The position numbers and the translations under genes are program-made. The notes under the pieces were generated by a model. The model saw nothing but the letters and a program-made list of their open reading frames with translations. It searched no databases and was not told the origin of the DNA. A DNA stretch of 64,000 nt from Sporofaciens sp. SGI.106 (GTDB lineage: Bacteria > Bacillota > Clostridia > Lachnospirales > Lachnospiraceae). Shown piece by piece: positions 3,573 through 53,306 of the stretch. Each line of letters starts with the position of its first letter. Position 1 is the first letter of the stretch. The stretch lies in the NCBI RefSeq assembly GCF_050314255.1, contig NZ_JBNPMZ010000003.1, positions 62,204 to 126,203 on the forward strand, given 5' to 3'.

Positions 3573-3573
3573 A

Positions 3574-8159: not shown

Positions 8160-8169
8160 TTCCCGTCTC

Positions 8170-15983: not shown

Positions 15984-16022
15984 CTATTAGACTCCTCTGC
16001 TCACACTTCGTTACAAAGATTT

Positions 16023-17556: not shown

Positions 17557-17567
17557 CCTGTGTCTCC

Positions 17568-17780
17568 TTTCATTATACGAAAAATCGCAACAATTTACAA
17601 CTTTTCTTATCTGAAATGTAAAAAATTGGATACATATGAGAGATGCTCTCGATACTCTGACCGACTGTACAGTCGATTAGAAAATAAGATTTATGAGTAT
17701 TATTAACCAGAATGGTCTTATCAAATCCTCAGATGAATTAAAGAAATTATATCAAAAATTTTGTTATATGTCAACTTTTA
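17568..17780. repeat. second copy of the 213-bp segment (see 14208-14420)
   Basis: Direct sequence comparison. Confidence 0.75.
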
Positions 17781-17918: not shown

Positions 17919-18881
17919 TTAATTATTTACTTCATTTCTATAATCCATGAACGCGTCATAGGTGTCTTCTTCCAGCTCCAGAGATTCCATGACCTGTTTT
18001 GCAATATCACTGTCTATCGCGATACAGAACATGGTAATAGACAGATAGTGATCTCCACCGTCCACATCCATAAGGAACTGAGCGCTTGGCAGATCAGACC
18101 AGGTGAATGTCAAAGCTCTCCAGGTATAATCTCCATAGGTCACTTCTCCCACATCTTCATACCCTGTATCTCTTCCTAATTGAGATTCCACCGCTTCGTC
18201 CACCGTTCCTTTTTTCATATAGAAACCGATTCGCTGATCATCAGAGCCATCAAAGTTTTCCTGAAATTTTTCATCCTGCAGTGTAAATCCATCCGGCACA
18301 TCAAAGGAATAATATCCGTCATAGAGTTTTCCCTTTTCCTCTGCTTCTTTCTCTTCAACCTCTTCTTCCTCAGTCTCTTCTTCCTCCGTGTACTCGCCAA
18401 ACACGATGCTTTCCATCATGGTTGTCACATCCTCCGAATCAATATCCAGCACATCTCCGCCGACCACACAAACCACATGAGGAATACCATTTACAAGGGT
18501 AATATAGTGATAGGAAGCTTCTGCGTTAGTTGTAACATCCATACGCATATAATCATAGGACCCCACTGTCACTTCTGTCGGATTGGAAAATACATTCGGA
18601 CGTTCTTCGATATCTGTATTAATATCCTCTTTCAAAGCATCCATCGTATATTCTTCTCCCGATACATAGCCAAAGGTTTCAGCAAAGATATTTCCAACAT
18701 CGTTAGGACCGGCAATCTCTATATAATCACTGTTCGTGCTCTTGCTGCCTTCCGGTGCGATGGTAAGTACCTCCTGACTTTCAGATACCGTTACTGTATA
18801 CCCTTCTAACGGAGTCACCTCAATCACCCCGTGAGCGGATTTTACAGAAACAGGAGCCTTTGCTTCCTCATTTTCAAGCAT
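17919..18881 (-). CDS. hypothetical protein with poly-acidic stretch (TEEEETEEEEVEEKEAEEK)
   Basis: ORF with a 26-nt gap to the upstream lipoprotein gene. No signal peptide. Confidence 0.45.
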   Translation of the reverse strand: MLENEEAKAPVSVKSAHGVIEVTPLEGYTVTVSESQEVLTIAPEGSKSTNSDYIEIAGPNDVGNIFAETFGYVSGEEYTMDALKEDINTDIEERPNVFSNPTEVTVGSYDYMRMDVTTNAEASYHYITLVNGIPHVVCVVGGDVLDIDSEDVTTMMESIVFGEYTEEEETEEEEVEEKEAEEKGKLYDGYYSFDVPDGFTLQDEKFQENFDGSDDQRIGFYMKKGTVDEAVESQLGRDTGYEDVGEVTYGDYTWRALTFTWSDLPSAQFLMDVDGGDHYLSITMFCIAIDSDIAKQVMESLELEEDTYDAFMDYRNEVNN

Positions 18882-18907
18882 TTTCTCCTGATTATTCTTA
18901 CTGTCTT

Positions 18908-20356
18908 TTATTCATCCAACCAGAGCTGTGCGCTATAGCCACCGAAATTCTCACCCGGTGAGAACCAGCACTCGAAGGATGTGTTATAGAACCGGTAATT
19001 TCCGTCGGAATAATAATACCTGTATTCACAGCTGTTAAGATCCTTATCCAGATTCTGGTTCCACTCATCCAGCGTATAATAAGTTGACTCCATGAAAAGG
19101 TAATCCCCATCAATAAATTTTGCTCCATTATTGACATATTCAGACATCTCTGTCTCCCATGTGCGAAGATTCACTCTGCCCAAATGATACTGTTCAAAAT
19201 CCTCTGTTGTATCAAAATACAGATATTCTCCGCAGATCACAGGATTATAAGAACGTACCTCTGTGATCTTCTTCTCGATCTTCTCTCCCACATGGTAAAC
19301 GTGAAGCGTCTCTCCATCCGCATCATCCTGAAATACGATCCATCCGTCTCCCACCTGATACGGGTAGTACACTTCCCTGTCATCAATGATCGGTGTGATA
19401 TTCTTACCATCCAGATCCATAGAACAGTAATGATGGTTTTCATCCGTAAAATATAGTTTCCCGTCGTAGACCTGCTGATACTCTACAGCCTTATCATACA
19501 GAAACTCCGTCTTGTTGTTCTTTACATTAATTTTGACAATACCCAGATTTTTCTCTCCGTTTACCGTAGCATATACATATCCTTCCTCATACTGGAAGTT
19601 AGCCGGATTACAAATCTCGCCGTCAAGAAGAGCCTGCACATCATCCAGGACTACATCTGAACCGTCTTTGCTGATCTTGGCACAGGCAAGCTTTCCATGG
19701 GCTTCATAGCCATATGCCATGTCATCTGCAACAATGGCGTAGCCGCCACTGGAAAAGGCACTCATTTTTCTCACATCTTCCTCGGTAAATTCCGGAGCAA
19801 AGTTGTAAATGCTGACCTTGGGCTCACCCGCATACTCAAACTGGTACGCCTCGTCACCCTCTCCTGCTGCTGATTTTAGAGTCAGGATGAGGATCTCGCC
19901 GTCAAAGGCTGCCGCCGCGCCGCTGTAGGATTCTGTCACCTCCGGATTCTCAAGGGTAAGCGTATAGCTGTCATTCTCTTCTGTCCACAACATCGCCAGT
20001 TCCGCTGTTCTTTCTTCCCCTTCTTCGTCCTCCTCTATCACAGAAAAAGCACAGTTCCCTGTCTCCCATCCTGTGAAAGAGATCGTAGCAAGCATGTCGT
20101 ATCCCAGCAGTTCCTTACAGTCCTCACTGGTCAGCGTTCCCAGATCATCCGTTGTCATAGACGTACACTTCCACTGACCTACGATGTCGCCCGCCTCATG
20201 TGCCGGTTTCTCCGGCTCAGCCTCCTCTTCTGATTCCTTTTCTTCCTTTGCCGTATCTTCCTTCGGTGCTTCTTTCTTGTCAGAACCGCAGGCACACAGG
20301 CCAAGCACCATCGACAATACCAATAATACTGTCAACAGTTTTCTTTTCATAAACAA
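18908..20356 (-). CDS. lipoprotein, hypothetical (possibly beta-propeller-like)
   Basis: Signal peptide plus lipobox LGLCACGS. Acidic linker. Repeated aromatic-rich segments. Confidence 0.55.
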   Translation of the reverse strand: MFMKRKLLTVLLVLSMVLGLCACGSDKKEAPKEDTAKEEKESEEEAEPEKPAHEAGDIVGQWKCTSMTTDDLGTLTSEDCKELLGYDMLATISFTGWETGNCAFSVIEEDEEGEERTAELAMLWTEENDSYTLTLENPEVTESYSGAAAAFDGEILILTLKSAAGEGDEAYQFEYAGEPKVSIYNFAPEFTEEDVRKMSAFSSGGYAIVADDMAYGYEAHGKLACAKISKDGSDVVLDDVQALLDGEICNPANFQYEEGYVYATVNGEKNLGIVKINVKNNKTEFLYDKAVEYQQVYDGKLYFTDENHHYCSMDLDGKNITPIIDDREVYYPYQVGDGWIVFQDDADGETLHVYHVGEKIEKKITEVRSYNPVICGEYLYFDTTEDFEQYHLGRVNLRTWETEMSEYVNNGAKFIDGDYLFMESTYYTLDEWNQNLDKDLNSCEYRYYYSDGNYRFYNTSFECWFSPGENFGGYSAQLWLDE

Positions 20357-20370
20357 CTTCCTCCCTTCTG

Positions 20371-21636
20371 TCAGAATTTTCCTCCACTTCCTCCATGCGT
20401 CGTTCCGGAAGAGCTGGTATGAGTACTGCTTCCTCCGCTGTCCTCTTTTACAATTTTTCTTTGTGTCACGGTCTTATTCACCAAGCGATCCCAGTTAGCA
20501 GTCAAGATCATGCTTCCCGGCACAGCATAATCACGCGCATTCGTCTTTCTTACGACTGATTTCAGGCTTGCCTTCTTCTTCGTGCCGAGAATAAATGCAA
20601 TCACAATTCCGATCAGCACAGAGATGGGAATCATAACCGGAGAAATGGTACCTTTGGGGAGATTTCCCTTATCATAAGGTTCTCCGGACTTTGCCTGTGT
20701 AATAAATTCATCACAGAGCGTAGCATATTTTGTAAATGCCTCGCTGTAAAACCCGTCACTGAGCAACGGGGTAAATTTGTCAGCCATGTAGTCCATGCCT
20801 GCATCGGTGAATGCGGTAATTCCATAGCCACAGGTACTCATATGCCAGTCACGTTCCTCCATGCTGATAAGCAACAGGATACCGTCCCTGTTTTCTCCGA
20901 ATCCATAACCGTTATAATCATAGAAATCATCGGCGTATTCCATGGCTGTTCTGCCTTGTAAACTGTCCGTCGTCACCACCACGACATCACACTGCTGCCG
21001 CTCACTGATCTCGTCAAGCATTGCCAGAAGCTCTTCTTCTTCGGAATCGGTCAGAAGGTCTCCGTTATCCACCAGACGCGACTGAAGTCGTTCAGTAGGA
21101 ATGCCGCCTGCCTCCGGCTCTTCAGCCTCTGCCTGAGCCTCAGCCTGAGCAGCCTCCAATGCAGCTTTATCCATGACGATTCCTGTTTTTACTTCCAGTA
21201 TCTCCTGTGCCTTATCCAGATAAGCGTCTACAGCCTCATCATAATATCCGTAATAATCATATTCCGCCCACAGTGCGTCCTCATCTTCAACCGTAATAAG
21301 ATCTACCGCACTTCCGGACTTATACAAGTACCACTCCTGATCCTCCGTACTCTCGATCAGCATGATTCCGTCCGCTTCTCCGAAGCATCCCTGATAGATC
21401 TGCTCAGAATAAGCCACTGTTCCCTGTCCTCCGGTTGACTCTGTCAGCAGGATGCTCACAGTGAACCCATAAGTATCTGAAATCACAGATGCCTTCGCAT
21501 TCAATTCCGGTATAAAACCGGTCACACATCCCCGCTGATCGATTATATAGAGCATACTGTCAACGGCTGATACCGGAAGCACCATAAGGAGCGCCAGGAG
21601 AACTGTTAAAAATATTGATACGATCCGTTTCTTCAT
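20371..21636 (-). CDS. TPM-domain protein (YgcG/UPF0603-like), signal peptide, C-terminal TM and Gly-rich tail (cassette A)
   Basis: Signal peptide. Two TPM-like units (GxxLxLxxxxxxDxxxx pattern, DDFYDYNGYGFGE..GILLLISMEERDW). TM helix. GGSSTHTSSSGTTHGGSGGKF tail. Paralog at 29481-30299. Confidence 0.75.
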   Translation of the reverse strand: MKKRIVSIFLTVLLALLMVLPVSAVDSMLYIIDQRGCVTGFIPELNAKASVISDTYGFTVSILLTESTGGQGTVAYSEQIYQGCFGEADGIMLIESTEDQEWYLYKSGSAVDLITVEDEDALWAEYDYYGYYDEAVDAYLDKAQEILEVKTGIVMDKAALEAAQAEAQAEAEEPEAGGIPTERLQSRLVDNGDLLTDSEEEELLAMLDEISERQQCDVVVVTTDSLQGRTAMEYADDFYDYNGYGFGENRDGILLLISMEERDWHMSTCGYGITAFTDAGMDYMADKFTPLLSDGFYSEAFTKYATLCDEFITQAKSGEPYDKGNLPKGTISPVMIPISVLIGIVIAFILGTKKKASLKSVVRKTNARDYAVPGSMILTANWDRLVNKTVTQRKIVKEDSGGSSTHTSSSGTTHGGSGGKF

Positions 21637-21649
21637 CTATATGTCCCTC

Positions 21650-22762
21650 CTAAAACAGCAGCAGCCTTATCCACAGCAGAGCATAGATAAGTGCTCCGAT
21701 GATTACGCCTCTTGCCGTAACATATTTCCAGAATGCTCCGTTATCCGCCGGAAGGTCTCCTACCATCTTACCGGTCTGTCCATTCATGGCAAAGATATAT
21801 TTCTCACCCTTCCATGTAGTATTCAGGATCCATACCGGATACAGCGCATACAGGTACCGCGCATTGTAGATGTTCACATTACTCTCTACCGGTGTCACAG
21901 AATGATATCCCGTCACTGTATCTTCAAATGACTGCTGCGCACTTTTTTTGATCCGCTCCTTTGCCCGCACCAGTCGTTCTTCCATGTCCACATCGTAGCG
22001 GTCAGCCACGTATCCTGCCAGATAGGCTGGCTGGAACGGTACTGCTTCCGAAAAGTCATACGGCTCAATAGATTCCATCAGATCATCATCCATCTTTCTG
22101 GAACCATCTGCGGGGATATGCTCAAAACGGATGCCTCCGGATCTCTTCACCTGATAATGTTCATGCTCCGTGTATTCAATATCTCCGCTTTCCCATACCT
22201 GCACACGCTCCGCACTATATGTAATATCTGCCTTTGTATCTGCATCAAACAACCAGAACGGCACATACACACCCTTGATCTCATCAATATGGTTCTCCTG
22301 CTTAAACACCTTCGGCAGGAACTTCTTTCCATGCAGGTGCTTATGATAAGCCTCCTTTGCAGCCTTCTTATCCAGCTTGAAGGGGATGATATAGTCCGGC
22401 TTCAGATCTCCTGAGAACTGTCCCTTCATAACCACACGGTTCCCGCAGAACGGACAGCTTGTAGCTCCGGTATTCTCATCTGCCACGATCTCGCCGCCAC
22501 AGGATTCGCAGGCATATACCCTCATGCCGTTTGTCTCGCCTTCACTCCACTGTCCATCACTGGCTGCCTGCCAGTTCACATCATCCGAAGCACTTCCGCC
22601 CGGTGCATTTTCTGCACCGTCCTGTTTTCCCTGCTGCGTCTGCTGGAATTCTTCAATGCTCATCTCTGTATCACAGTACGGACATTTCATCTTCTGGCTC
22701 TTACTGTCAAATTCCATGGCACCACCACAGGCCGGACATTTATATTCCATTATGTCAGACAT
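21650..22762 (-). CDS. double zinc-ribbon protein with C-terminal TM anchor (cassette A)
   Basis: CPACGG...CPYCDT and CESCGG...CPFCGN zinc ribbons. C-terminal hydrophobic helix. Paralog at 30321-31385. Confidence 0.7.
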   Translation of the reverse strand: MSDIMEYKCPACGGAMEFDSKSQKMKCPYCDTEMSIEEFQQTQQGKQDGAENAPGGSASDDVNWQAASDGQWSEGETNGMRVYACESCGGEIVADENTGATSCPFCGNRVVMKGQFSGDLKPDYIIPFKLDKKAAKEAYHKHLHGKKFLPKVFKQENHIDEIKGVYVPFWLFDADTKADITYSAERVQVWESGDIEYTEHEHYQVKRSGGIRFEHIPADGSRKMDDDLMESIEPYDFSEAVPFQPAYLAGYVADRYDVDMEERLVRAKERIKKSAQQSFEDTVTGYHSVTPVESNVNIYNARYLYALYPVWILNTTWKGEKYIFAMNGQTGKMVGDLPADNGAFWKYVTARGVIIGALIYALLWIRLLLF

Positions 22763-22783
22763 AGCTTTCTCCTTTCCTGCATG

Positions 22784-23725
22784 CTAGCAGATATCATTTA
22801 TATCAAAAGGATCTCCGCACTGTGGGCAGAATTTCGGAATATTATTAGGATCTTCCGGAACCCACCCGCACTTGTCACATCGAACCATTCTTCTTTGTTG
22901 CTGCATGCCCTGCTGCATTCCCTGGTTCATCCCATTCATCTGCTGACCGTACATTCCGTTATTCATCATGCCGCCCTGCATTCCCTGATTCATTCCATTC
23001 ATCTGCTGACCGTACATTCCGCCATTCATCATGCCGCCCTGCATTCCCTGATTCATCCCATTCATCTGCTGGCCATACATTCCGTTATTCATCATACTGC
23101 CCTGCATTCCCTGATTCATTCCGCCCATGGGCTGAGCACAGCCGGTAAGAGCTGCCACGATCTGATTTCCTGTATTTTCCATCATCATCATCTTGTTACG
23201 GTCACTATCCTCAATAGAAAATGTATTGAGCTGGAAGTCCATGTCGTCAAACCACGGAGAGTTTACTCCGATCTTGATCCAGTAATCATAGGAATATTTG
23301 TATCTCGGCGGATTGTAGCTTCTCATATTACCGTCATTGTCCTCATACTGCTCTTCATCACAATCCTGCTTAATCTCCAGTCTGCAGCTGGTTATCTGGG
23401 AAAGTGAAACAATATCCGGATTGGTATCAACACTCATTCTGGTAGCAATTGCGAACTGTCCCTTTGTATCGTCAACAAAAACATGATAGCGTTCTCCTGC
23501 CAGATCCCTGGTAATCTGGAAATTTTTTACCTTTGCTTTGTTGGCTTCACGGTAAGCCAACTGCTCTTTAATAGATGCGACGGTGCTGTGGCGGCGCTCT
23601 TCAAACCACGGGGAAAGCTTCTTTGCACATTCTTTACAGAGGTTACCGTCATCCAGCTTCCGGTTACCAAGCATTCCTATCTTTTCTCCACAAATATCAC
23701 AGTATTTCTTATCAAATAATCCCAT
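22784..23725 (-). CDS. DUF4428-like zinc-ribbon protein with M/G/Q/N-rich 21-aa repeats and C-terminal zinc ribbon
   Basis: [15 protein letters not shown]...CKEC N-terminus. Four [21 protein letters not shown] repeats. C-terminal [31 protein letters not shown]. Confidence 0.6.
22894..23135. repeat. 63-bp tandem direct repeats x4 (coding, inside the DUF4428 gene)
   Basis: ctgcattccctgRttcatYccattcatctgctgRccRtacattccg... recurring at 22912, 22975, 23038 and 23101. Confidence 0.8.
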
Positions 23726-23744
23726 ATTCTTTTCCTCCTTTTGC

Positions 23745-25166
23745 TTATACTATGTCGTTCTCATTAAAAGGATCTCCGCACTCCGGACAGAATCTCGGTG
23801 GATTCTTCGGATCTGCAGGCTCCCATCCGCACTTGTCACAGCGGTATAATGGCGCTCCTGCCGGTTTCTTTGCTCCGCATTCCGTGCAGAACTTTCCTTT
23901 ATTGACTGCTCCACAGGAACAGGTCCAGCCTTCCTCAGTCGGTTTCGGAGAACCACACTCCGGACAGAATTTACCGGTAACCGTTGCACCGCAGGAGCAT
24001 TTCCATGCATCTGCCTTCACTGGTTCCGGCTTTTTAGCCCCACACTCCGGACAGAATTTGCCGGTTGCTGTTGCCCCACAGGAACACTTCCACCCTGCCG
24101 GAACCGCTGCTGCAGGTGCAGCCTGTTGCTTCATCTGCTGTGCCTGCTGCATCTGTTGCTGCTGACCCATGGCAAACAGATTCTGTGCATTTATGCCGCC
24201 TGCCTGCTGAGCCATTCCCATTCCCATAAATCCCATCATAGCTCCGTTTGGATTATTTGCCGCTGATTTCATTGCCTCAGACTGTGCTCCAACCAGTGTT
24301 GCTGCTGCCATAGTAGGATCTCGCATGATGGCTGCCCTCTGTGCCTGCTTGATCATCTCTGCATCCTCTTCCGGAAGTGTGATCGGATTCATCGCAATAG
24401 ACACAACAGAAAGTCCTCTAAGTTCTACCCATTTTTTTGTCAGTGCCTCGTTCATTGCCTCTGAAAGCTCTTCCGCATGTCCCGGAAGTGCACTCGGGCG
24501 GATCTGAAGCTCAGAAATTTTTGCAAATGCCGGCTGGAGAGCACTGATAAATTCCGTCTTTAACTGACTCTCAATCTCTTCCCGATTATATTCCTGCTCC
24601 ACATTTCCGCACACGTTCGTATAGAACAGAAGCGGGTTGGTAATTTTGTAGGAATAAACGCCGGAACACCTTACAGATACATCAATATCCAGACCGATAT
24701 TGCGGTCTACTACCCGGAACGGAATCGGATTCGGTGTGCCGAATTTATTATCGATCAGTTCCTTTGTATTAAAGTAATACACCCGCTGATCTTTCCCGGT
24801 ATCTCCTCCATACGTAAAACGCTTACCTATGGTCCTAAAAGTTGCTTTAATACTGTCTCCCAGGTCTCCTGCAAAGATACTTGGTTCTGTAGATGTGTTA
24901 TATGTATATTCACCGGGTTCAGCACACACTTCAACAATCTTTCCCTGTTCTACGATCATCATGCACTGTCCGTCTGCCACAGCAATGCCGGAACCGTTGG
25001 AGATAATATTGTCATTCCCTTTCGTATTGGACGAACGTCCTGTGATCCGTTTCTGCCCTTTTTTCACCATTACATCTTTGTCCAGCGCTTCGCAGTAGAA
25101 AAATTCTTTCCACTGATCTGCCATTGCACCGCCAAATGCTCCCATTCCTGCTTTGATAAGTCCCAT
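23745..25166 (-). CDS. SPFH/band-7 domain protein (COG4260-like) with four C-terminal zinc ribbons (cassette A)
   Basis: [13 protein letters not shown]...ADQWKEFF N-terminus typical of this SPFH family. Three [18 protein letters not shown] repeats plus a terminal [31 protein letters not shown]. Confidence 0.8.
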
Positions 25167-25246
25167 AACTTATCCTCCTTTCGATTTCACTTTGTTCGTT
25201 TTATCCGTATTTCCCGTACTCTTATTCCGTGAATCTGCATCCTTAC

Positions 25247-25636
25247 TTATAATGAATCCAGCGCCGCCGCAAGATACTCGGCTGTCACAGAAGCATAGAA
25301 AAATGCGTCAATCTTTCCTGCCTGCTTCGCCCGCATTACATCACGTGCCAGCTCCGGATATGCTATCTCATCACAGAGCAGCACCATCTTACACGCAGAC
25401 AGCTCTCTGCGCATTTTATCAATCAATGCTAACCGTCCCTCCAGTCTGGTCTCCAATGACGAGGGTGTCACATCCATTAATAATATGTCTGGTCCGGCAG
25501 CCTGGCATTCAATCAGGATCATCTCCTGCTGCCGTGGCGGAACATATAGCGGATGAAAATCGCCGGTCTGTTTCAGCATCAAATAAACACTTTCCGCAAA
25601 AACACGATTAGAGATACTGATTGCAATTTTCTTCAC
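25247..25636 (-). CDS. degenerate receiver (REC)-like domain protein
   Basis: ILLMDV aspartate context and a K near the C-terminus, but it lacks the N-terminal acidic pair. Stand-alone 129 aa. Confidence 0.35.
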   Translation of the reverse strand: MKKIAISISNRVFAESVYLMLKQTGDFHPLYVPPRQQEMILIECQAAGPDILLMDVTPSSLETRLEGRLALIDKMRRELSACKMVLLCDEIAYPELARDVMRAKQAGKIDAFFYASVTAEYLAAALDSL

Positions 25637-25868
25637 TTTCTTTTCCCCTTTCCATAAAACTTCTTACTTTAGACACACTTTATTCCTCATATTATTTTCA
25701 GTCTATTCTATATACCATTATATGAGATTCTGAAAATTGTACATGACACGAAAGTACTATAAAGGAACAAAGAGTTCCGCCCATGGAGGGTTTTTGCTTT
25801 ATGGAAACGCAGTTTCCTATAGAGCAAAAAAGATTGCGCACCAGGCGCAATCTCAGACACTGCAATCT

Positions 25869-26498
25869 CTAATCAATATTTACTACAATTCCGCTGACCC
25901 TTGCCTCAATAGCAAGTTCCGTCCTGCTTCCACATCCGGTTTTTTCCATCATATGACGAATGTGATTCTTCACAGTATTTTCTGTGATTCCAAGCTTCTG
26001 TGCAATGATGGCATTGGACACCCCTGTCGTCATTACACGAAGCACTTCCAGCTCCCGCTCGGTAAACTCCCCGCTGTTGCTAAGACCTAATTTTACCATT
26101 GGCACATGATCCGGATAAACCGATTCTCCAGCCATTGTCCGGTCCATCACTTCGAGAATGGTCTCACTGGATGCCTCCTTAAACCAGAAGCTTTCGATGC
26201 CTATTTTCCGCGCCCTGTTAAGCCAGGATGCTTCCGGCATAGACGTAACAGCAATGATTTTTATATTCGGACGGTTCTTCTTGATTCTTGCAGCAGCTTC
26301 CAATCCATTGGATCCATCATTCATTAAAATATCCATAAGCACAAGGTCAATCGAGTTCTTCAGTACAAAGGTATCAGCAAAGGCCGCCGATTCTATTGCA
26401 TATACCAACTCATAGTTTTCTGATGACTTTACATACATCTCAAAAAGCTGTCGTGAGATATATTGATCATCTACAATCATTACTCTTGTTCTGCCCAT
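25869..26498 (-). CDS. response regulator, NarL/LuxR family (LiaR-like)
   Basis: REC domain (VMIVDDQ...LVLMDILM) plus LuxR HTH (LTERELEVLRVMTTGVSNAIIAQKLGITENTVKNHIRHMMEKTG). Confidence 0.85.
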   Translation of the reverse strand: MGRTRVMIVDDQYISRQLFEMYVKSSENYELVYAIESAAFADTFVLKNSIDLVLMDILMNDGSNGLEAAARIKKNRPNIKIIAVTSMPEASWLNRARKIGIESFWFKEASSETILEVMDRTMAGESVYPDHVPMVKLGLSNSGEFTERELEVLRVMTTGVSNAIIAQKLGITENTVKNHIRHMMEKTGCGSRTELAIEARVSGIVVNID

Positions 26499-27802: not shown

Positions 27803-29472
27803 TCACCTCCCAATGGCAAAGCAAGAGAAATATACTCTGTCTGCTGATCCTTTTCTATCTCCAGCGTTCCATGTAATTTTTCAATCTTATCCTGAATACT
27901 GCGATTTGACAGCACCTTCCTCGGATTGTTCAGTTCCATTCTTAAAGCAAGTACGTCTTCCGATATATTCAGATTAACAAGTACCGCATCTGTACCGGGA
28001 ATCCCCGCTTCCAGTACCGCCTCAACCAGTTCATATGCTGTCAGGATACTCTCTCCCGGAAGGGTTCCTTTCACACGATAGGACCCATAAGTCTTAATTC
28101 CGTACAGTCGCACATATTCCAGTGATTCTGCAATCGCCAGATGAAGCTCTTCGCCATGAATCTCCCGCCCCTGATGACAAAGAAGCAAAAGATTCGAATG
28201 GCGTTTAATGTATGCATTCAGAATACAGGCAAATTTCATTGTCTGCTCAAACTGCTCTTCTTCAGACGAAAGACCATCCAGCAAACTGCTCAGTCTGTCA
28301 ATCTGAAGACGGACACTCTCTGTAATACTGTCATATAATTTGTTCTGCTGCTCAATACGAAACCGGCTCTCCGCCAGTTTATTTTCCGCATCCAGCATAG
28401 CATTTTCTTCAGCCAGTACATCTCCCAGTTCTTCAAGCTCCCGATTCAGATGATTAATCTCTGAAATATCTCTGGTCCAGTACCCATAACCTCCCTGTAC
28501 TGCATGGCTTCTCAGACTGACATTGCCATCCTTAAGCAATACTTCATGTTCCTGCGCTTCCAGGATCTGTTCCGGGGATGGTGACACATTCTGTTCCGAG
28601 CGATAGCGGATCACTCCATCTTTATCCATAATCCCTGCACCTATTGACGACGCATTCCAGAAGTCACCGTATCCGTCATTCGAAGGAAGAAGATGTGTCG
28701 CGATAAGTCCCTCCATAAATGCGGCAAATATCACGCAGACCATTTCCGGTACCCTGAACATAAATTGCAGAATATTATCCGGATCAACAAAAAACATCAC
28801 AAGATAACAGATTCCAACACCTAACGGCACCAGTGATATCCAGACCTTTCTGCGCCTTCCCGGTACGGCACACCGAATCAGTACAATCGCCAATATGGCA
28901 GTGAAAAGCACAAAAATCCACAGCAGAGCTGCAAAATAAAATGGACCATGTATATATGGTGTATCACTCGAGTTTATCATACCCTCCGGGAACCGAAATG
29001 CCAGCTGGTGCATATCGTTGGTCAGAATTCCGGCTGTAATAATAATCGCAGGTATGTAAAGCAGTTTCCACAACCGACTGATGGGACGGTCATACGGACG
29101 CCCAATATAAAGTACTGAAAAAAACATCAGAAGCACACAAAATGTCTGAGGAATGTAGTACAGATACCAGGCATATCGCTCTGTAAAATGTCCCCTCAAA
29201 AGGAACATATACTTTACAGTCCGAAGCCCCATCCAAAAAACCATCAGATATGCAGCCGCAATTAGATTCCTTCGCACTTCCGGCTGAAGAACACGCCTTC
29301 TGATCTGCGAGATCCAGATAAACGCTGCTGTCGAATAAAATGCATAAATAATAATATTATGAGTAATCTCTGTTCCGTACAGCAAAAGACGTGCCACGCC
29401 GGAAAACAACACCAGCATAATACAGACTGTATTCAGAATTTTCGTTTCTTTACTTCCAGCATAATTTAACAT
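27793..29472 (-). CDS. multi-pass membrane sensor protein with coiled-coil and degenerate histidine-kinase-like C-terminal domain
   Basis: About 8 predicted TM helices, then a coiled-coil (LNRELEELGDVLAEENAMLDAENKLAES). A C-terminal ATPase-like region with no clear H-box. Confidence 0.4.
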   Translation of the reverse strand: MLNYAGSKETKILNTVCIMLVLFSGVARLLLYGTEITHNIIIYAFYSTAAFIWISQIRRRVLQPEVRRNLIAAAYLMVFWMGLRTVKYMFLLRGHFTERYAWYLYYIPQTFCVLLMFFSVLYIGRPYDRPISRLWKLLYIPAIIITAGILTNDMHQLAFRFPEGMINSSDTPYIHGPFYFAALLWIFVLFTAILAIVLIRCAVPGRRRKVWISLVPLGVGICYLVMFFVDPDNILQFMFRVPEMVCVIFAAFMEGLIATHLLPSNDGYGDFWNASSIGAGIMDKDGVIRYRSEQNVSPSPEQILEAQEHEVLLKDGNVSLRSHAVQGGYGYWTRDISEINHLNRELEELGDVLAEENAMLDAENKLAESRFRIEQQNKLYDSITESVRLQIDRLSSLLDGLSSEEEQFEQTMKFACILNAYIKRHSNLLLLCHQGREIHGEELHLAIAESLEYVRLYGIKTYGSYRVKGTLPGESILTAYELVEAVLEAGIPGTDAVLVNLNISEDVLALRMELNNPRKVLSNRSIQDKIEKLHGTLEIEKDQQTEYISLALPLGGEWL

Positions 29473-29480
29473 ATTCCCCG

Positions 29481-30299
29481 TCAGAATTTTCCGCCTCCGC
29501 CTCCGTGTGTTCTTCCTGATGAACTGGTGTGAGTGCTGCTTCCTCCACTGTTTTCATTTCTCTCAATCTTCCTGGTTGTGACGGTCTTATTCACCAGATG
29601 ATCCCAGTTTTTTGTAAGAACCATACTTCCCGAAACCATATAGTCCTGCGCCTGTGTATTTTTAACCACTGATTTCAAAGCTGATTTTTTTATCATACCA
29701 ATAATAAGCGCAATCACAAATCCAATCAACAGATCCACGAATATCCAGAAAGCCGGAACCGTTCCTTTGGGAAGATTTCCCACATCATATGGCTCCCCGG
29801 TCCTTGCCTGTGTAATAAAATTGTCGCAAAGCTCTGCATATTTTTCAAATGCGTCACTGTAATCTCCGTCACTGAGCATTGGTAAGAATTCATCTGCCAC
29901 ATACTCTATACCTGCATCAGTCAGTGCTGTAATTCCGAAACCACAGGTAGAAATATACCAATCTCTTTCCTCCATACTGACCAGAAGCAGGATACCGTCT
30001 TTTTCCTCGCCGAACCCATAACCATTATAATCATAGAAATCATCGGCATATTCCATGGCACTCTTACCATCCAACCCGTCGACCGTCACTACTGCAACAT
30101 CACATTCCTGCCGTTCACTGATCTCATCGAGCTGCTCCAAAATATCTGCCTCTTCCTCATCTGTCAGGAGATCCGCTTCATCTACAAGACGCGGCAAAAG
30201 CCGCTCGGGTGGCATTTCTTCCACTGCTGCTGATACCGGAAGTACTGTGGAGAAAATCAAAATAACTGTAAATAATATCGTAAATAACCGTTTCTTCAT
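29481..30299 (-). CDS. TPM-domain protein (YgcG-like), signal peptide, TM and Gly-rich tail (cassette B)
   Basis: C-terminal two-thirds near-identical to 20371-21636 (DDFYDYNGYGFGEEKDGILLLVSMEERDW...GGSSTHTSSSGRTHGGGGGKF). Confidence 0.8.
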   Translation of the reverse strand: MKKRLFTILFTVILIFSTVLPVSAAVEEMPPERLLPRLVDEADLLTDEEEADILEQLDEISERQECDVAVVTVDGLDGKSAMEYADDFYDYNGYGFGEEKDGILLLVSMEERDWYISTCGFGITALTDAGIEYVADEFLPMLSDGDYSDAFEKYAELCDNFITQARTGEPYDVGNLPKGTVPAFWIFVDLLIGFVIALIIGMIKKSALKSVVKNTQAQDYMVSGSMVLTKNWDHLVNKTVTTRKIERNENSGGSSTHTSSSGRTHGGGGGKF

Positions 30300-30320
30300 T
30301 TTCCTGTCCGCCCTTCCATT

Positions 30321-31385
30321 CTATATCAGCATGATTACCCACGTGAGAGCATACAGGATTGCCCCTGTAATTACTCCCCATGTTGCAACAAATCGCCAGA
30401 AAGCTCCTTTGTCTGCAGGAAGATCACCTACCATCTTTCCGGTCTGTCCATTCATGGCAAAAGTATATTTTTCACCATTCCATGTAGTATTCAGAATCCA
30501 TACAGGATATAGCGCATAACTATATTTTGCATTACAGATATTTACATGACTCTGTGCCGTCATCACGGAATGATATCCTGTTACTGTATTTGCAAATGAA
30601 TCCTCTGCACTGCGTTTCATTCTTTCTTCGGCACGCTTCATCCGTTCATCTTTATCCACATCATAGCGGTCGGCCACATATCCGGCCAGATATGCCGTCT
30701 GAAACGGAACAGCCTCCGAGAAATCATAAGGCTCTATGGATTCCATCAGCGTATCGTCCATTTTTACTGACCCATCCGCCGGAATGTGCTGAAAGCTGAT
30801 TCCACCGGCTCTTTGTGCCTGATAAAAGGAATGTTCCGTATATTCCACATCACCGGTTCTCCATACCCGCGTCTTCTGGGCATTATATGTAATATCTGCT
30901 TCCACATCCGCGTCAAACAGCCAGAACGGAACATAGACTCCTTTGATTTCATCAATATGGTTTTCCTCTTTGAAAATAGCAGGCAGAAACTTCTTTCCAG
31001 ATAAATGCCTGTGATAGGCTTCTTTCGCATCCTTCTTATCCAGTTTAAATGGAATAATATAGTCTGGCTTTAAGTCTCCGGCAAACTGACCTTTCATTAC
31101 TACACGGTTACCACAGAAAGGACAGGTAGTTGCACCGGTACTGTCATCTGCAATAATTTCCCCACCGCAGGATTCGCAGACATAGATGTGCATTCCATCC
31201 GTCTCACCCTCCTGCCAGTTTCCGTCACCTTTTGCCTGCCAGTCTGCCTGCTGTTGCTGCATCTGCTGATACTCTTCAATACTCATCTGTGTATCACAAT
31301 ACGGGCATTTCATCTGCTGGCTCTTACTGTCAAATTCCATGGCTCCGCCACAGGCAGGACATTTATATTCTATTATATCTGACAT
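30321..31385 (-). CDS. double zinc-ribbon protein with C-terminal TM anchor (cassette B)
   Basis: Paralog of 21650-22762 (MSDIIEYKCPACGGAMEFDSKSQQMKCPYCDTQMSIEE...). Confidence 0.7.
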   Translation of the reverse strand: MSDIIEYKCPACGGAMEFDSKSQQMKCPYCDTQMSIEEYQQMQQQQADWQAKGDGNWQEGETDGMHIYVCESCGGEIIADDSTGATTCPFCGNRVVMKGQFAGDLKPDYIIPFKLDKKDAKEAYHRHLSGKKFLPAIFKEENHIDEIKGVYVPFWLFDADVEADITYNAQKTRVWRTGDVEYTEHSFYQAQRAGGISFQHIPADGSVKMDDTLMESIEPYDFSEAVPFQTAYLAGYVADRYDVDKDERMKRAEERMKRSAEDSFANTVTGYHSVMTAQSHVNICNAKYSYALYPVWILNTTWNGEKYTFAMNGQTGKMVGDLPADKGAFWRFVATWGVITGAILYALTWVIMLI

Positions 31386-31399
31386 AGATTTCTCCTCTC

Positions 31400-32602
31400 C
31401 TAACGGATGTCATTTTCATTAAAGGGATCACCACATTCCGGACAGAATTTCGGAGGATTCTTCGGATCTGCAGGCTCCCAGCCACATTTATCACAGCGAT
31501 ATAACGGAGCTGCTGCAGGTTTCTTCGCCCCACACTCTGTACAGAATTTGCCTTTATTTACCGTTCCACATGTACAGGTCCAGCCTCCCTGTTGCTGCTG
31601 TCCCATGGCAAACAAATTCTGTGCATTTATGCCACCTGCCTGCTGAGCCATGCCCATTCCCATGAATCCCATCATGGCACCATTGGGATTATTTGCCGCT
31701 GCTTTCATAGCATCAGCCTGTGCTCCTGTAAGTGTTGCAGCTGCCATAGTAGGATCACGCATGATTGCAGCTTTCTGTGCCTGCTTGATCATCTCAGCAT
31801 CTTCTTCCGGAAGCGAAATGGTATTCATAGCTATGGATATAACAGAAAGCCCGCGAAGCTCTGCCCATTTTTTTGTAAGAGCCTGATTCATTGCCTCTGA
31901 CAGCTCCTCTGCATGACCCGGAAGTGCATTCGGCCGAATCTGCAGTTCGGAAATTTTTGCAAATGCCGGTTGAAGAGCACTGATAAATTCTGTTTTTAAC
32001 TGGCTTTCAATCTCTTCGCGATCATATTCCTGTTCCACATTTCCACACACATTTGTATAAAACAGAAGCGGATTAGTGATTTTATAAGAATAAACACCGG
32101 AACATCTGACAGATACATCAATATCCAATCCAATATTGCGGTCAACCACCCGGAACGGGATCGGATTCGGTGTGCCGAATTTATTATCCATCAATTCTTT
32201 CGTGTTAAAATAATAAACGCGCTGATCTTTTCCCGTATCTCCACCATACGTGAAACGTTTTCCAATGGTCCGGAAGGTTGCTTTAATGCTGTCTCCGAGA
32301 TTTCCCGCAAAAATACTGGGCTCTGTAGATGTATTGTAGGTATATTCTCCCGGTTCTGCACATACCTCTACAATCTTTCCCTGCTCTACAATCATCATAC
32401 ACTGGCCATCTGCCACCGCAATTCCCGATCCGCTGGAAATAATATTGTCATTCCCTTTCGTATTGGAAGAACGACCGGTAATACGCTTTTGTCCCTTTTT
32501 CACCATCACTTCTTTGTCCATTGCCTCGCAGTAGAAAAACTCCTTCCACTGATCTGCCATTGAACCGCCAAGAGCTCCCATTCCTGCTTTAATAAGTCCC
32601 AT
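31400..32602 (-). CDS. SPFH/band-7 domain protein (COG4260-like) with two C-terminal zinc ribbons (cassette B)
   Basis: N-terminus more than 90% identical to 23745-25166. C-terminal [18 protein letters not shown] plus [31 protein letters not shown]. Confidence 0.8.
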   Translation of the reverse strand: MGLIKAGMGALGGSMADQWKEFFYCEAMDKEVMVKKGQKRITGRSSNTKGNDNIISSGSGIAVADGQCMMIVEQGKIVEVCAEPGEYTYNTSTEPSIFAGNLGDSIKATFRTIGKRFTYGGDTGKDQRVYYFNTKELMDNKFGTPNPIPFRVVDRNIGLDIDVSVRCSGVYSYKITNPLLFYTNVCGNVEQEYDREEIESQLKTEFISALQPAFAKISELQIRPNALPGHAEELSEAMNQALTKKWAELRGLSVISIAMNTISLPEEDAEMIKQAQKAAIMRDPTMAAATLTGAQADAMKAAANNPNGAMMGFMGMGMAQQAGGINAQNLFAMGQQQQGGWTCTCGTVNKGKFCTECGAKKPAAAPLYRCDKCGWEPADPKNPPKFCPECGDPFNENDIR

Positions 32603-32605
32603 ATC

Positions 32606-33232
32606 TTATCTTCCTTTCGTTTTTACTTTTCCGGAATTTTTCCGTTTCTCAGGTCTTCCGGTTTTCTTCTTTTTCACAACACTGTACCCAAATGTCCCTA
32701 TCTTCCTGCCAAGGCCAAGATATGTCCCGTGGGAATAAGCCAGAAGGCCCGTATCGTTCAGTTCGAACTTTCCGTTTTCCTTCATATATGCCTCATCTAC
32801 ATGAACTGCCACAACCTCCGCCAGAAACATATGATGACTTCCAAGCTCTTTTATTTCCACCACACGGCACTCAATATTTACCGGGCTTTCTTTTATAAGC
32901 GGAGCATACTGAAGCTTCTTGGCCTTCTCCGGTGTCAGCTTCATTTCCTTCCACTTATCACCATCTCTTCCGGATTTCACTCCGCACCAGTCCGTTGCCC
33001 GCGCCAGCTTCTCCGTCGTAAGATTCACCACAAATTCTTTTGTTTCGCGTATCATACGGTAGGAATACCTCTCCGGTCTCACAGATATATAGAGCATGGG
33101 CGGGTTGGTACACACCGTCCCCGTCCATGCTACTGTGATAATATTCTGATTTCCTTCCCGGTCTGCAGCACTTACCATAACCGCCGGAAGCGGATAAAGC
33201 ATATTGCCTGGTTTCCATGTTTGCTTTGCCAT
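32606..33232 (-). CDS. flavin reductase-like (FMN-binding split-barrel) protein with Lys-rich C-terminal tail
   Basis: MLYPLPAVMVSAAD...NIITVAWTG...PPMLYISVRP pattern typical of the flavin reductase-like domain. Tail KKKKTGRPEKRKNSGKVKTKGR. Its stop is 3 nt from the SPFH-B start. Confidence 0.65.
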   Translation of the reverse strand: MAKQTWKPGNMLYPLPAVMVSAADREGNQNIITVAWTGTVCTNPPMLYISVRPERYSYRMIRETKEFVVNLTTEKLARATDWCGVKSGRDGDKWKEMKLTPEKAKKLQYAPLIKESPVNIECRVVEIKELGSHHMFLAEVVAVHVDEAYMKENGKFELNDTGLLAYSHGTYLGLGRKIGTFGYSVVKKKKTGRPEKRKNSGKVKTKGR

Positions 33233-33249
33233 AACTTTATTTTCCTCTC

Positions 33250-34896
33250 TTACTGTTGCAGCGCTCCCACCAGCGTTGGTATCAGCTGCTTCTTACGGGA
33301 TACCACACCCTTTAATATCATGTGAGATCCATCTTCCGGCAGATTGAAGGCGTCAATGATCGGTGCTTTTGCTCCCTGACCACAGCAGAGAAGCTCTGTC
33401 GATTCATCCAGAATGTCCGTCAGCATAAAATAAATCATATTCAGATTATGCTCTTTCAATGCTTTTGGAAGATGCGGTGTCAGCATTTCCTTGATTTCTT
33501 TCAATTCATCCTTACTCATGGAATTGATCTGGCCCACACCAAAGACCTTTTCTCCCACCGTAAACTGCTTGAAATCCTGGAAACAGATTTCCTCCGGTGT
33601 CTTTCCCTTAAGATTGCTTCCCGCATTGAACATCTCTGCAGCCAGCTCATCCAGATTGACATCTGCAATCTTCGCAAGCGTCTGTGCAGCCAGTTCATCT
33701 ACCACCGTACAGGTTGGGGAGCGGAATAACAGTGTATCTGACACAATAGCGGAGCAAAGCAGTCCGGCTATCGTCGGTGTAATCTCCACACCTGATTCCT
33801 GATACATCTGATAGACAATCGTAGCCGTACATCCCACCGGCTGATTCCGGAAAAATACCGGTCCCATTGTTTCAATATTTCCCAGTCTGTGGTGATCGAT
33901 GATCTCCATGATCTCTGCTTCTTCAATACCGTCCACCGCCTGAGATTTCTCATTATGATCCACCAGAATCACCCGCTTCTTGCTCACACTCATGAAACGG
34001 CGTCTGGAAATAAATCCCTTGAAATTGCCATGACGATCCAGGATCGGGAAATCACGGTATTTCTTCTGAGTCATAACTTCCTTAATGTCATCTACATAAT
34101 CATTCATCCGGAAAGTCACCAGCGGTCCCTTACTCATAAAATATTTCACCGGAATACTCTGATTAATAAGCCGGGCTGCCGTAAATGTATCATAAGGAGT
34201 TCGTATAATAACAATACTCTGCTCCTCTGCCTTACGGATCAATTCCTCCGAAACCTCTGCATTCTGGCAGATGACCATACAGCTGGCATCGATATTAACC
34301 GCGCAGGCCTGAGATTCATAACGGTTTCCCAGAATTACCAGGTCATCCTTCTGTATAAATTCCTGCATCATATCCGGGCTGGACGCACCGATGGTTACCT
34401 TTCCTTTTACAAAATATCCATGCTCGTTTCCCGTCACCAGAGTTCCATCCAGAGTTTCAATAATATTCTTATACTGGGTTCTTGCCTCTGCAAGAATCGT
34501 ACTTCCATACACATCCATATAAGATGTAGCAATATCTCCTGTAGAAATAACACCCATCAGCTCTCCATCCTTCAGTACCGGAATCGTCTTTACCCCTTCT
34601 TTTTTCATTAATTCCCAGGTATCTTTGATGGACACATTCGGTGCAACACCTTTGATCTTATGAATATCCATATCCTTTACCTGCAGCTTTACATCTGCAA
34701 GATATCTTGGCGCATCCACCTTAAATCTGCGGAGCACATACTGTGTCTCCTCATTAATCTGACCGGCCCGCTTTGCGATATAGTCTCCTCCGGTCATTTC
34801 TCTCTTCAAATGTGCATATGCAATGGCGGAACAAATGGAATCTGTATCCGGATTCTTGTGTCCCACTACGTATATTTTCCCTGATTTTTTTTCCAT
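33250..34896 (-). CDS. ppaC: CBS-domain-containing manganese-dependent inorganic pyrophosphatase (family II, DHH/DHHA2)
   Basis: YVVGHKNPDTDSICSAIAYA DHH N-terminus. CBS pair insert. DHHA2 region with GGGHxxAAG-like motif (GQGAKAPIIDAF...). Confidence 0.85.
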   Translation of the reverse strand: MEKKSGKIYVVGHKNPDTDSICSAIAYAHLKREMTGGDYIAKRAGQINEETQYVLRRFKVDAPRYLADVKLQVKDMDIHKIKGVAPNVSIKDTWELMKKEGVKTIPVLKDGELMGVISTGDIATSYMDVYGSTILAEARTQYKNIIETLDGTLVTGNEHGYFVKGKVTIGASSPDMMQEFIQKDDLVILGNRYESQACAVNIDASCMVICQNAEVSEELIRKAEEQSIVIIRTPYDTFTAARLINQSIPVKYFMSKGPLVTFRMNDYVDDIKEVMTQKKYRDFPILDRHGNFKGFISRRRFMSVSKKRVILVDHNEKSQAVDGIEEAEIMEIIDHHRLGNIETMGPVFFRNQPVGCTATIVYQMYQESGVEITPTIAGLLCSAIVSDTLLFRSPTCTVVDELAAQTLAKIADVNLDELAAEMFNAGSNLKGKTPEEICFQDFKQFTVGEKVFGVGQINSMSKDELKEIKEMLTPHLPKALKEHNLNMIYFMLTDILDESTELLCCGQGAKAPIIDAFNLPEDGSHMILKGVVSRKKQLIPTLVGALQQ

Positions 34897-53200: not shown

Positions 53201-53306
53201 TTATGTACTCCTCCTTGTCATAGCATTTCTCTGATAATTGTAAATATTATAGTTGATGAAGTACCTCTCTGTCAACCATTGTTAGAAATTTGTCCGATAC
53301 CTATTT

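Follow-up and report, generated by a model that had tools for sequence, protein, structure and literature searches.

How does a membrane stress sensor of the SamGH type reach transcription? In Bacillus subtilis, SamG, SamH and SamI (previously YdjG, YdjH and YdjI) tether the ESCRT-III-like protein PspA at the membrane, and they have been studied in that species only, in two papers. SamG and SamH serve there as the membrane anchor that recruits the SPFH scaffold (PMC8581546; bioRxiv 10.64898/2026.02.06.704340), and according to a preprint SamGH senses membrane stress, with the SPFH protein as a restraint and with a downstream pathway that is still missing (bioRxiv 10.64898/2026.02.06.704340). 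The question is raised by a locus of Sporofaciens sp. SGI.106 (positions 17919–34896 of the 64-kb stretch of DNA analyzed here, hereafter the window), in which the genes of a signaling unit lie between two cassettes, A and B, each encoding an SPFH protein, a zinc-ribbon protein (ZnR) and a TPM protein. The locus is an unbroken run of 15 open reading frames (ORFs) of at least 120 amino acids (aa), all on the minus strand; 17 co-directional genes had been counted in the original prediction, which was made from the same DNA, and the genes that it described were all found where it had placed them. Our answer, to which we assign a probability of about 65%, is that two old SamI-SamG-SamH cassettes are combined here with a dedicated envelope- or membrane-stress signaling unit that switches on cassette A, the function in envelope or membrane stress being one that we infer. 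The locus is a variant of a known envelope-stress module and not a new kind of system; what is new is the recurrent linkage of module and signaling unit, together with an activator-type promoter that follows the regulator gene in many genomes.

The SamGHI-type cassettes

The pspA-ydjGHI loci of four B. subtilis-group species were fetched by means of the ydjG forward primer (PMC8581546, Table 4), and the locus of Bacillus stercoris (B. subtilis group; L002) was used as the Bacillus reference. By BLASTP, ZnR-B aligned with YdjG over the whole length (34% identity, E=7e-74), as did TPM-B with YdjH, the G/S-rich tail with its final F included (24% identity, E=2e-13), and SPFH-B aligned with YdjI (20% identity, E=8e-12) in a collinear series of SPFH domain, M/G/Q-rich linker and terminal ribbons. 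Cassette A was likewise recognized by tblastn, ZnR-A with YdjG (Table 1) and TPM-A with YdjH (E=1.5e-9). Judged by these alignments, the ZnR, TPM and SPFH proteins are full-length homologs of Bacillus YdjG, YdjH and YdjI, and the proposal that the cassettes are of the YdjGHI type was supported both by this homology and by architectures that agree with those published (PMC11237479; PMC8581546). Of the Pfam families predicted for the core proteins, Band_7_1 (E about 1e-23) and TPM (1e-33 to 1e-38) were recovered, whereas the ZnR proteins gave only sub-threshold zinc-ribbon matches; DUF4428, Flavin_Reduct, REC plus GerE and HisKA_7TM were matched in the other genes.

Both SPFH proteins are built of a Band_7_1 domain, a low-complexity linker (M/G/Q-rich in SPFH-B, Q/M/G-rich in SPFH-A) and C-terminal zinc ribbons, of which SPFH-B carries two and SPFH-A four. 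Both are predicted to be soluble, no transmembrane (TM) segment was found in either protein by a hydropathy scan, and no solved structure was related to SPFH-B by sequence. YdjI consists of a band-7 domain and a C-terminal ribbon without a membrane anchor, and in B. subtilis it is located in fluid, not ordered, membrane regions. ZnR-B carries a pair of zinc ribbons at its N-terminus and a beta-rich YpeB/PepSY-like region, and is anchored by a TM tail at its C-terminus; ZnR-A, too, is a tail-anchored protein with a double zinc ribbon. For YdjG, a pair of zinc ribbons has been described together with a YpeB/NTF2-like region and a TM segment (PMC11237479). The C-terminal TM segment was seen by the hydropathy scan in ZnR-A and ZnR-B but not in YdjG, where it rests on that publication. 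TPM-B comprises a signal or N-terminal TM segment, an extracytoplasmic TPM domain, a TM segment and a cytoplasmic tail that is G/S-rich and has F as its last residue, and YdjH a TPM domain and a low-complexity tail (PMC11237479); the scan found two hydrophobic segments in TPM-B, as in YdjH, and for both the SPFH and the TPM proteins the predicted topology was that of YdjI and YdjH. TPM-A has an additional, degenerate TPM domain at its N-terminus; like TPM-B, it is a bitopic protein of the SamH type with its TPM domain outside the cytoplasm.

The duplication had been called recent, the SPFH N-termini being more than 90% identical. That identity was confirmed, at about 94–95% over the first 338 residues (78% overall, BLASTP), while ZnR-A and ZnR-B share 74% identity and the TPM proteins 68% over their common 222 residues. 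The date drawn from it was not upheld. Nei-Gojobori synonymous divergence (dS) is saturated in all three pairs (SPFH 1.16, ZnR 1.82, TPM 1.40), and no tract of low dS was found in windows of 60 codons. The two ZnR proteins have separate orthologs, at 91% identity for ZnR-A (P0008) and 92% for ZnR-B (P0001), each of which is only 70–76% identical to the opposite paralog; in a neighbor-joining tree of the ZnR proteins, ZnR-A with P0008 and ZnR-B with P0001 were each joined with 100% bootstrap support, and ZnR-A and ZnR-B were monophyletic in 0 of 100 replicates. The SPFH-A domain, moreover, is as similar to its ortholog in another species (L014, 94.5%) as it is to SPFH-B (93.9%). On these grounds a recent tandem duplication or a gene conversion was rejected as the source of the ~94% SPFH identity. 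Sequence divergence thus marks the cassettes as anciently diverged paralogs, and because dS is saturated and orthologs are equally similar, the SPFH identity is explained by very strong purifying selection (SPFH ratio of non-synonymous to synonymous divergence about 0.03). In a sister lineage, in which the protein with seven TM segments (7TM) of the signaling unit is 91% identical, a HisKA_7TM plus GerE gene occupies the place that cassette B has in the window.

Two further features of the cassettes, the inverted gene order and the absence of PspA, had been listed as oddities. Scanning metagenomes with the ZnR family as anchor yielded 80 loci, or 48 clusters after dereplication, which were annotated with 10-kb flanks by tblastn using the window proteins and Bacillus PspA. 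An SPFH gene lay directly upstream of the ZnR gene in 37 of 39 dereplicated loci and a TPM gene directly downstream in 44 of 44, and pspA was found by tblastn within 10 kb in none of the 48. The same I-G-H order (SPFH, hypothetical protein, TPM), without pspA and in housekeeping surroundings, is present in Enterococcus gallinarum pK205-4a-A (PML87_RS12925–12935). Within the window, tblastn with Bacillus PspA gave nothing below E=5, and no PspA_IM30 domain was found among the Pfam-scanned flanking ORFs, a scan outside which the segment at 50–64 kb lay; the lack of PspA in the cassettes was thus confirmed. Because of the locus survey and the Enterococcus example, the pspA-less I-G-H arrangement is to be regarded as the common form, normal in gut Clostridia and Enterococcus, and the Bacillus operon as the variant. 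The unusual feature of the present locus is its possession of two cassettes, 8.6 kb apart, since a second ZnR gene within 10 kb was found in none of the 80 loci. A search with ZnR-B returned at least 8000 significant matches, nearly all of them unnamed proteins of gut Clostridia, so that the SamGHI-type module, normally without pspA, must be considered very common among the Clostridia of the human gut. Of the named relatives of the proteins, those from Lachnospiraceae such as Faecalicatena contorta were nearest.

The signaling unit and the activator-type promoter

Between TPM-B and the 7TM gene there are 8 nucleotides (nt); the 7TM gene shares 10 nt with the kinase gene, and this in turn shares 19 nt with the regulator gene. 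The regulator consists of a REC domain and a GerE/LuxR helix-turn-helix domain (NarL class; its best NCBIfam match, NarL, scores 82.7 bits where the cut-off is 250). The H-box (HD..G..L), N-box and G-box of the kinase are conserved in an alignment of 14 sequences, its HATPase_c match is weak, and its NCBIfam matches to UhpB, LiaS and MctS fall far below the cut-offs. As no significant HisKA_3 match was obtained in Pfam, the label HisKA_3 kinase could not be kept as it stood, and the kinase is better described as divergent and HisKA_3-like. The description of the pair as LiaSR-type is valid at class level (NarL/LuxR-type regulator, HD-type H-box) but no further, the Strep_LiaS model scoring 22.8 bits against a cut-off of 450 and a LiaF/Toastrack partner being absent.

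The 7TM protein, predicted earlier to be a membrane sensor, is a membrane protein with a HisKA_7TM N-terminus, followed by a PAS-like region and a DHp/CA-like C-terminus. An alignment of its family shows a conserved Tyr at the position of the H-box His and no N-box, and its C-terminal half is collinear with the kinase family over 218 columns, which run from the PAS-like region through to the end of the protein (hhalign probability 17%, E=0.0015). It is now read as a probable pseudokinase and co-sensor partner of the kinase. The 129-aa protein encoded beyond the regulator gene had been taken for a degenerate receiver, and profile–profile comparison with the REC domains of the regulator family agrees with this (hhalign probability 96.3%, E=1.7e-9), although Pfam gave no match; in its family the REC fold is kept but the DD pair and the Lys are missing, and the acceptor position is occupied by Asp or Glu.

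An intrinsic terminator 15 nt past the stop codon of the regulator gene is the best terminator-like site in the region, and ends the operon of cassette B and the signaling genes. Beyond it lies a promoter composed of CTTTCGTGTCATGTA, a 26-nt interval and TATAAT, with no recognizable -35 box (Table 1). In conserved form it reads CTTTCG-N26-27-TATAAT, the center of the element lying at about -41/-42. The element recurs at the same spacing (in one case as GTTTCG) in two settings: it immediately follows the regulator gene in L009, L014, L077/L094, L088, L100, L106 and L107, and it precedes pseudo-receiver homologs in L052/L055, L061, L101 and L102. The succession of regulator gene, terminator and CTTTCG promoter is found in the window and in at least eight other distinct sequences. 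A strict pattern matched 31 times in 2.6 Mb, and nine of these matches lay no more than 350 nt past a regulator stop codon, against 0.09 expected. The arms that flank the element are inverted repeats which differ by lineage, e.g., TGTCCTC-ACTTTC-GAGGACA and ACTACCC-GTTTC-GGGTAGT, while the position of the center is kept. The geometry matches class II activator sites, the kind that a dimeric LuxR-type regulator would be expected to use, and the CTTTCG element is predicted to be the binding site of the regulator.

Other control elements were considered and set aside. A perfect palindrome, GGAAACGCAGTTTCC (25803–25817), sits between the terminator and the conserved promoter; it was rejected as an operator, being not conserved in related loci and having near matches elsewhere that look like chance. 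Control by an extracytoplasmic function (ECF) sigma factor of the sigma-W type, as in Bacillus, was also rejected: no sigma-W-type motif (GAAAC-N15-18-CGTA) was found in the window, although the sequence recognized by the ECF sigma factor encoded nearby is not known, and the promoter that was found has a sigma-70-type -10 box with an upstream activator element. That ECF sigma factor (15441–15983) is encoded with a zf-HC2 anti-sigma factor (14478–15440) and a DUF3793 protein just downstream of cassette A (14478–16577, minus strand). Rfam showed no riboswitch or leader RNA in the locus, and its sole matches in the window were a T-box leader (52930–53230, minus strand, 110.6 bits) and a tRNA (58813–58885, minus strand).

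From gene spacing and these signals, two operons are predicted. The first would comprise SPFH-B, ZnR-B, TPM-B and the 7TM, kinase and regulator genes, with gaps of 3–21 nt or overlaps, and possibly begins with the pyrophosphatase (PPase) or the flavin reductase-like gene, as the spacings there are only 17 and 3 nt. The second, headed by the activator-type promoter, would comprise the pseudo-receiver, SPFH-A, DUF4428, ZnR-A, TPM-A, lipoprotein and acidic protein genes. No terminator was predicted between the promoter and SPFH-A, before which there is a gap of 80 nt. The reported gaps of 3–26 nt within the cassettes were borne out; SPFH, ZnR and TPM genes are spaced by 13–21 nt, with the DUF4428 gene inserted in cassette A.

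The link between unit and module was approached from both sides. From the ZnR side, the 7TM, kinase and regulator genes lay within 10 kb in 3 of the 18 clusters with full coverage and in six of all clusters, one of the six being L086, which had the 7TM gene alone, downstream at the contig end. The unit was placed variously upstream, downstream (L032/L033) or divergently (L012), with 7TM identities of only 22–61%. From the 7TM side, an SPFH gene was co-directional, downstream and within 10 kb in seven of the eight informative loci, namely the window, L009, L014, L100 (Faecalicatena contorta), L101, L103 and L107. In L005–L008 (6335–11931) the 7TM, kinase and regulator genes, a 58-aa gene, ZnR and TPM form one tight string without SPFH, and in L026 (4088–11853) and L032 (2537–9208)/L033 a DUF4428 gene replaces SPFH beside the signaling unit. 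Because the unit accompanies SPFH-less SamG-SamH pairs as well, SamG/H is seen as the constant partner of the kinase system. A pseudo-receiver homolog follows the signaling genes in L009, L077, L094, L101, L102 and L107. The wiring of the cassettes to a two-component system that the original prediction had proposed is supported by the recurrent synteny and the conserved promoter, but it is no general rule, as most loci (15 of the 18 fully covered) are without the unit. In the window, the unit appears to drive cassette A through the conserved promoter.

Additional regulatory genes were observed in some relatives. A fusion of HisKA_7TM and GerE (314–316 aa), that is, a one-component membrane regulator, is encoded directly upstream of the 7TM pseudokinase gene in L100 (8932–9876; F. 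contorta) and in L106 (22–972; the sister lineage). A protein of 524–532 aa with only a C-terminal GerE helix-turn-helix is encoded between the unit and SPFH in L012 (4768–6342), L014 (3873–5471), L100 (14894–16474) and L103 (9324–10916), accompanied by small proteins of 115–122 aa and a 344-aa protein; this GerE protein is absent from the window.

A proposed circuit and its alternatives

Following the Bacillus work, SamG and SamH would hold the SPFH scaffold to the membrane's inner face and would also serve as a sensor. The kinase and pseudokinase would detect a perturbation of membrane or envelope, and the SamG/H-B complex, co-expressed with the signaling proteins, could be a co-sensor or a brake. 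The phosphorylated regulator would then bind the -41.5 element and turn on cassette A, supplying more SPFH scaffold, a second client with the same terminal ribbon and extracytoplasmic components, with feedback on the regulator from the pseudo-receiver. PspA, if used at all, would have its gene at another place in the genome.

The second client in this scheme would be the DUF4428 protein, which has an N-terminal DUF4428 zinc ribbon, a PH-like domain, disordered Q/N/M/G repeats and a terminal zinc ribbon. The same type of ribbon (RCDKCGW.P.DP.N.P.FCP.CGDP), preceded by a Q/M/G-rich low-complexity stretch, ends the DUF4428 protein (22784–22900), SPFH-A (23745–23860) and SPFH-B (31400–31520, all minus strand), the last ribbons of the SPFH proteins containing (R/K)FCPECGDPF. 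Some homologs of the membrane nuclease SNIPE have a DUF4428 or a PH domain in place of the membrane anchor, and DUF4428-ZnR-TPM cassettes without SPFH exist (L026, L032/L033). The common ribbon, the SNIPE parallel and these SPFH-less cassettes together suggest that SPFH and DUF4428/PH-like proteins are alternative cytosolic clients of the SamG/H anchor, with the terminal ribbon as a possible docking tag, which would amount to a simple docking rule. The acidic lipoprotein has a DUF5050 beta-propeller-like domain and is a lineage-specific addition to cassette A: a homolog 80% identical follows the TPM gene in L014, and a gene of similar size without detectable similarity does so in L009. The acidic protein, with no match in Pfam or NCBIfam, has a homolog 76% identical at the same position in L014. 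An extended form of the scheme, in which SamG-SamH-type complexes are the input module of a four-part system (7TM pseudokinase, divergent kinase, NarL-type regulator and pseudo-receiver), SPFH and DUF4428/PH-like proteins are interchangeable ribbon-addressed clients and cassette B is a built-in brake or co-sensor, is put forward tentatively, as a possibility against which the odds still lie. If true, the four-part system would supply the signaling output that is missing for the Bacillus SamGH stress sensor.

Several observations weigh against the circuit with an inducible cassette A. The pairing of regulator and operator is drawn from position and conservation, and what stress is signaled, and which way the information flows, are proposals as well. 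The pseudokinase assignment is tentative, the underlying profile match being weak. No second CTTTCG promoter was found before cassette B or the signaling genes, the single three-mismatch match, inside the SPFH-B coding sequence, being at chance level, so that autoregulation is not supported; and the first operon has an undefined promoter, which may be that of the housekeeping PPase gene. The absence of PspA refers to tblastn with Bacillus PspA in the 64-kb window and 10-kb flanks. Finally, L102 has the 7TM unit with no Sam gene within 10 kb, and since no more than about a sixth of the SamIGH-type loci have the unit nearby, the module can do without it in cis.

The last two points are those on which the strongest alternative is built, namely that the cassettes are constitutive housekeeping scaffolds and that the unit is a mere neighbor controlling the pseudo-receiver and variable genes, with cassette A transcribed from a promoter of its own, e.g., in the 80-nt gap. 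Fully covered loci without the unit, the Enterococcus triad among housekeeping genes and L102, where unit and pseudo-receiver occur without Sam genes, all accord with it, as does the variety of first genes past the promoter (pseudo-receiver, 745-aa protein, SpaA-like, SLH protein, lipoprotein) and the fact that YdjI levels in B. subtilis barely change under stress. We nevertheless consider this unlikely, given that SPFH follows the unit in seven of eight informative loci in a linkage that survives rearrangement, that the SamG and SamH genes of L005–L008 form one tight string with the regulator gene, and that transcription from the promoter would meet no predicted terminator before SPFH-A.

Instead of sensing stress, the triad could mainly be a chaperone that helps to assemble or repair extracytoplasmic or membrane protein complexes, or it could work as a TPM phosphatase system, with different client complexes for its two copies. 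TPM domains have been proposed to aid the assembly of membrane-linked complexes, SPFH proteins scaffold proteases and synthases, and the extracytoplasmic extras of cassette A (the beta-propeller-like lipoprotein, the double TPM) could be clients or adaptors; yet this explanation overlaps the stress-responsive circuit instead of excluding it, deletion phenotypes in B. subtilis point to SamG/H signaling, and the kinase/regulator linkage and inducible-type promoter argue for a regulated response, which leaves it quite improbable. Least probable of all is an anti-phage or conflict system, in which the SPFH/zinc-ribbon complex senses phage injection or envelope damage and triggers a protective or abortive response. 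The SNIPE homologs in which DUF4428 and PH domains replace the anchor speak for such a role, in B. subtilis phage is one of the stresses to which sigma-W and the psp/sam operon respond, and Uma2 and PDDEXK_2 genes lie nearby. Against this, ten proteins compared with PADLOC-DB v2 gave a sole match at chance level (14.6 bits, E=0.003), Pfam found no nuclease, NADase, pore or protease domain in any gene, base composition is uniform, the neighbors are housekeeping genes, synteny is stable in four same-species contigs, the contexts are those of the core genome, and matches in phage and plasmid databases were few and mostly to chromids or small unannotated fecal contigs. All three alternatives are less well supported than a signaling unit that switches on cassette A.

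In several lineages the module is tied physically, and through the conserved promoter probably also regulatorily, to a unit of kinase, pseudokinase and regulator. The locus is therefore a testable candidate for the route by which SamGH-type sensors reach transcription, and a candidate envelope-stress circuit in abundant gut commensals.

Gene map, neighboring genes and known systems

Table 1. Positions of genes and signals at the Sporofaciens sp. SGI.106 locus, numbered from the first letter of the window.
Feature	Position	Strand	Evidence and remarks
PPase (CBS-DHH-DHHA2 pyrophosphatase)	33250-34896	-	Pfam; neighbor, not part of the module
Flavin reductase-like gene	32606-33232	-	Pfam Flavin_Reduct, E=2.7e-33; 3 nt upstream of SPFH-B
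SPFH-B, SamI/YdjI-like	31400-32602	-	Pfam PF13421 (Band_7_1), E=2.4e-23
ZnR-B, SamG/YdjG-like	30321-31385	-	BLASTP against YdjG
TPM-B, SamH/YdjH-like	29481-30299	-	Pfam TPM (PF04536), E=3e-33
7TM protein, 559 aa	27793-29472	-	Pfam HisKA_7TM (PF16927), E=2.3e-8
Membrane histidine kinase, 440 aa	26480-27802	-	Weak HATPase_c; conserved boxes
Response regulator	25869-26498	-	Pfam Response_reg, E=6.5e-16; GerE, E=1.6e-17
Intrinsic terminator	25830-25854	-	10-bp stem and T run
Predicted activator-type promoter, CTTTCGTGTCATGTA-N-TATAAT	25717-25754	-	Conserved element and -10; no usable -35
Pseudo-receiver, 129 aa	25247-25636	-	hhalign against REC of regulator family
SPFH-A, SamI-like	23745-25166	-	Pfam PF13421, E=6.5e-23
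DUF4428 protein	22784-23725	-	Pfam DUF4428, E=7e-18
ZnR-A, SamG/YdjG-like	21650-22762	-	tblastn with YdjG, E=3.6e-74
TPM-A, SamH-like	20371-21636	-	Pfam TPM, two stretches, E=1.6e-38
Acidic lipoprotein	18908-20356	-	Pfam DUF5050, E=1.9e-12; lipoprotein-like N-terminus
Acidic protein, 320 aa, unknown family	17919-18881	-	Last gene of cassette A; 75 D+E against 17 K+R

The PPase and flavin reductase-like genes are neighbors and not parts of the module. The latter is probably co-transcribed with SPFH-B; it lies next to SPFH in same-species contigs only (L096–L099), and not by the cassette in the other surveyed loci. The order of PPase, flavin reductase-like gene, cassette B and 7TM gene is kept in same-species contigs from four samples. 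The genes to either side are of ordinary chromosomal kinds (Hsp33, NAD synthetase, MMPL, ABC transporters), and base composition is uniform.

A number of other genes were observed on the minus strand of the window. A PDDEXK_2 (Rpn-like) gene (16657–17774) encodes a triple GIEQGRTE repeat near the C-terminus and has a perfect TTGACA-17-TATAAT promoter with TG extension (17774–17746), and a fusion of HTH_3 and Uma2 domains (putative restriction endonuclease-like) is encoded at 13278–14054. The region 1713–8204 holds a gene for a single-module protein resembling non-ribosomal peptide synthetases (adenylation, carrier and condensation domains; 968 aa), with a GrpB gene before it and two ABC exporter genes after it; these genes may form a cluster for a small peptide or amide product. 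A 719-aa protein with no Pfam match (40024–42183) is encoded beside an MMPL-family transporter gene, and the pair is also present in the same-species contig L096.

In the searchable literature, no account was found of a coupling of unit and module through an activator-type promoter, of the SPFH-less or DUF4428 variants, or of a double cassette; the original prediction had suggested that the arrangement might not have been described. Among the closest known systems are the triads of E. gallinarum and of about 48 gut metagenome loci, which share the I-G-H order, the absence of pspA and the tight or overlapping genes; those triads are single, and most are without the 7TM/kinase/regulator unit, the DUF4428 gene and the pseudo-receiver. 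FloA/FloT and HflK/C are likewise SPFH-fold oligomeric membrane scaffolds, and a weak Band_7 match is found here as well. In contrast to these, the SPFH proteins of the locus belong to a different Pfam family (Band_7_1) and have no N-terminal membrane anchor, attachment to the membrane being presumably through SamG/H; Pfam shows only Band_7_1/Band_7 and weak C-terminal zinc ribbons in them, and no flotillin domain.

With the pspA-ydjGHI operon of B. subtilis the locus shares the three core proteins, their domain order and topology, and their encoding by adjacent genes in one operon. It differs in the order of the genes (I-G-H as against G-H-I), in the lack of pspA from operon and window and of a sigma-W-type promoter, in its two diverged copies, in the extra zinc ribbons on the SPFH proteins, in the added DUF4428/PH-like protein, pseudo-receiver, lipoprotein and acidic protein, and in being linked to a kinase/regulator system instead of an ECF sigma factor. 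In this last respect it resembles LiaFSR-LiaIH, where overlapping genes encode first a membrane protein with an accessory role, then a kinase whose H-box is of the HD type and last a regulator of the NarL/LuxR type, and where a regulated promoter for membrane-protecting proteins follows the regulator gene. Unlike in LiaFSR, the accessory protein here is a probable 7TM pseudokinase, which matches HisKA_7TM only and not LiaF/Toastrack (LiaI-LiaF-TM plus DUF4097), the kinase and regulator are not orthologs of LiaS and LiaR by the NCBIfam cut-offs, a pseudo-receiver is added, and the predicted target is the SPFH/SamGH module and not LiaI and LiaH (PspA family).

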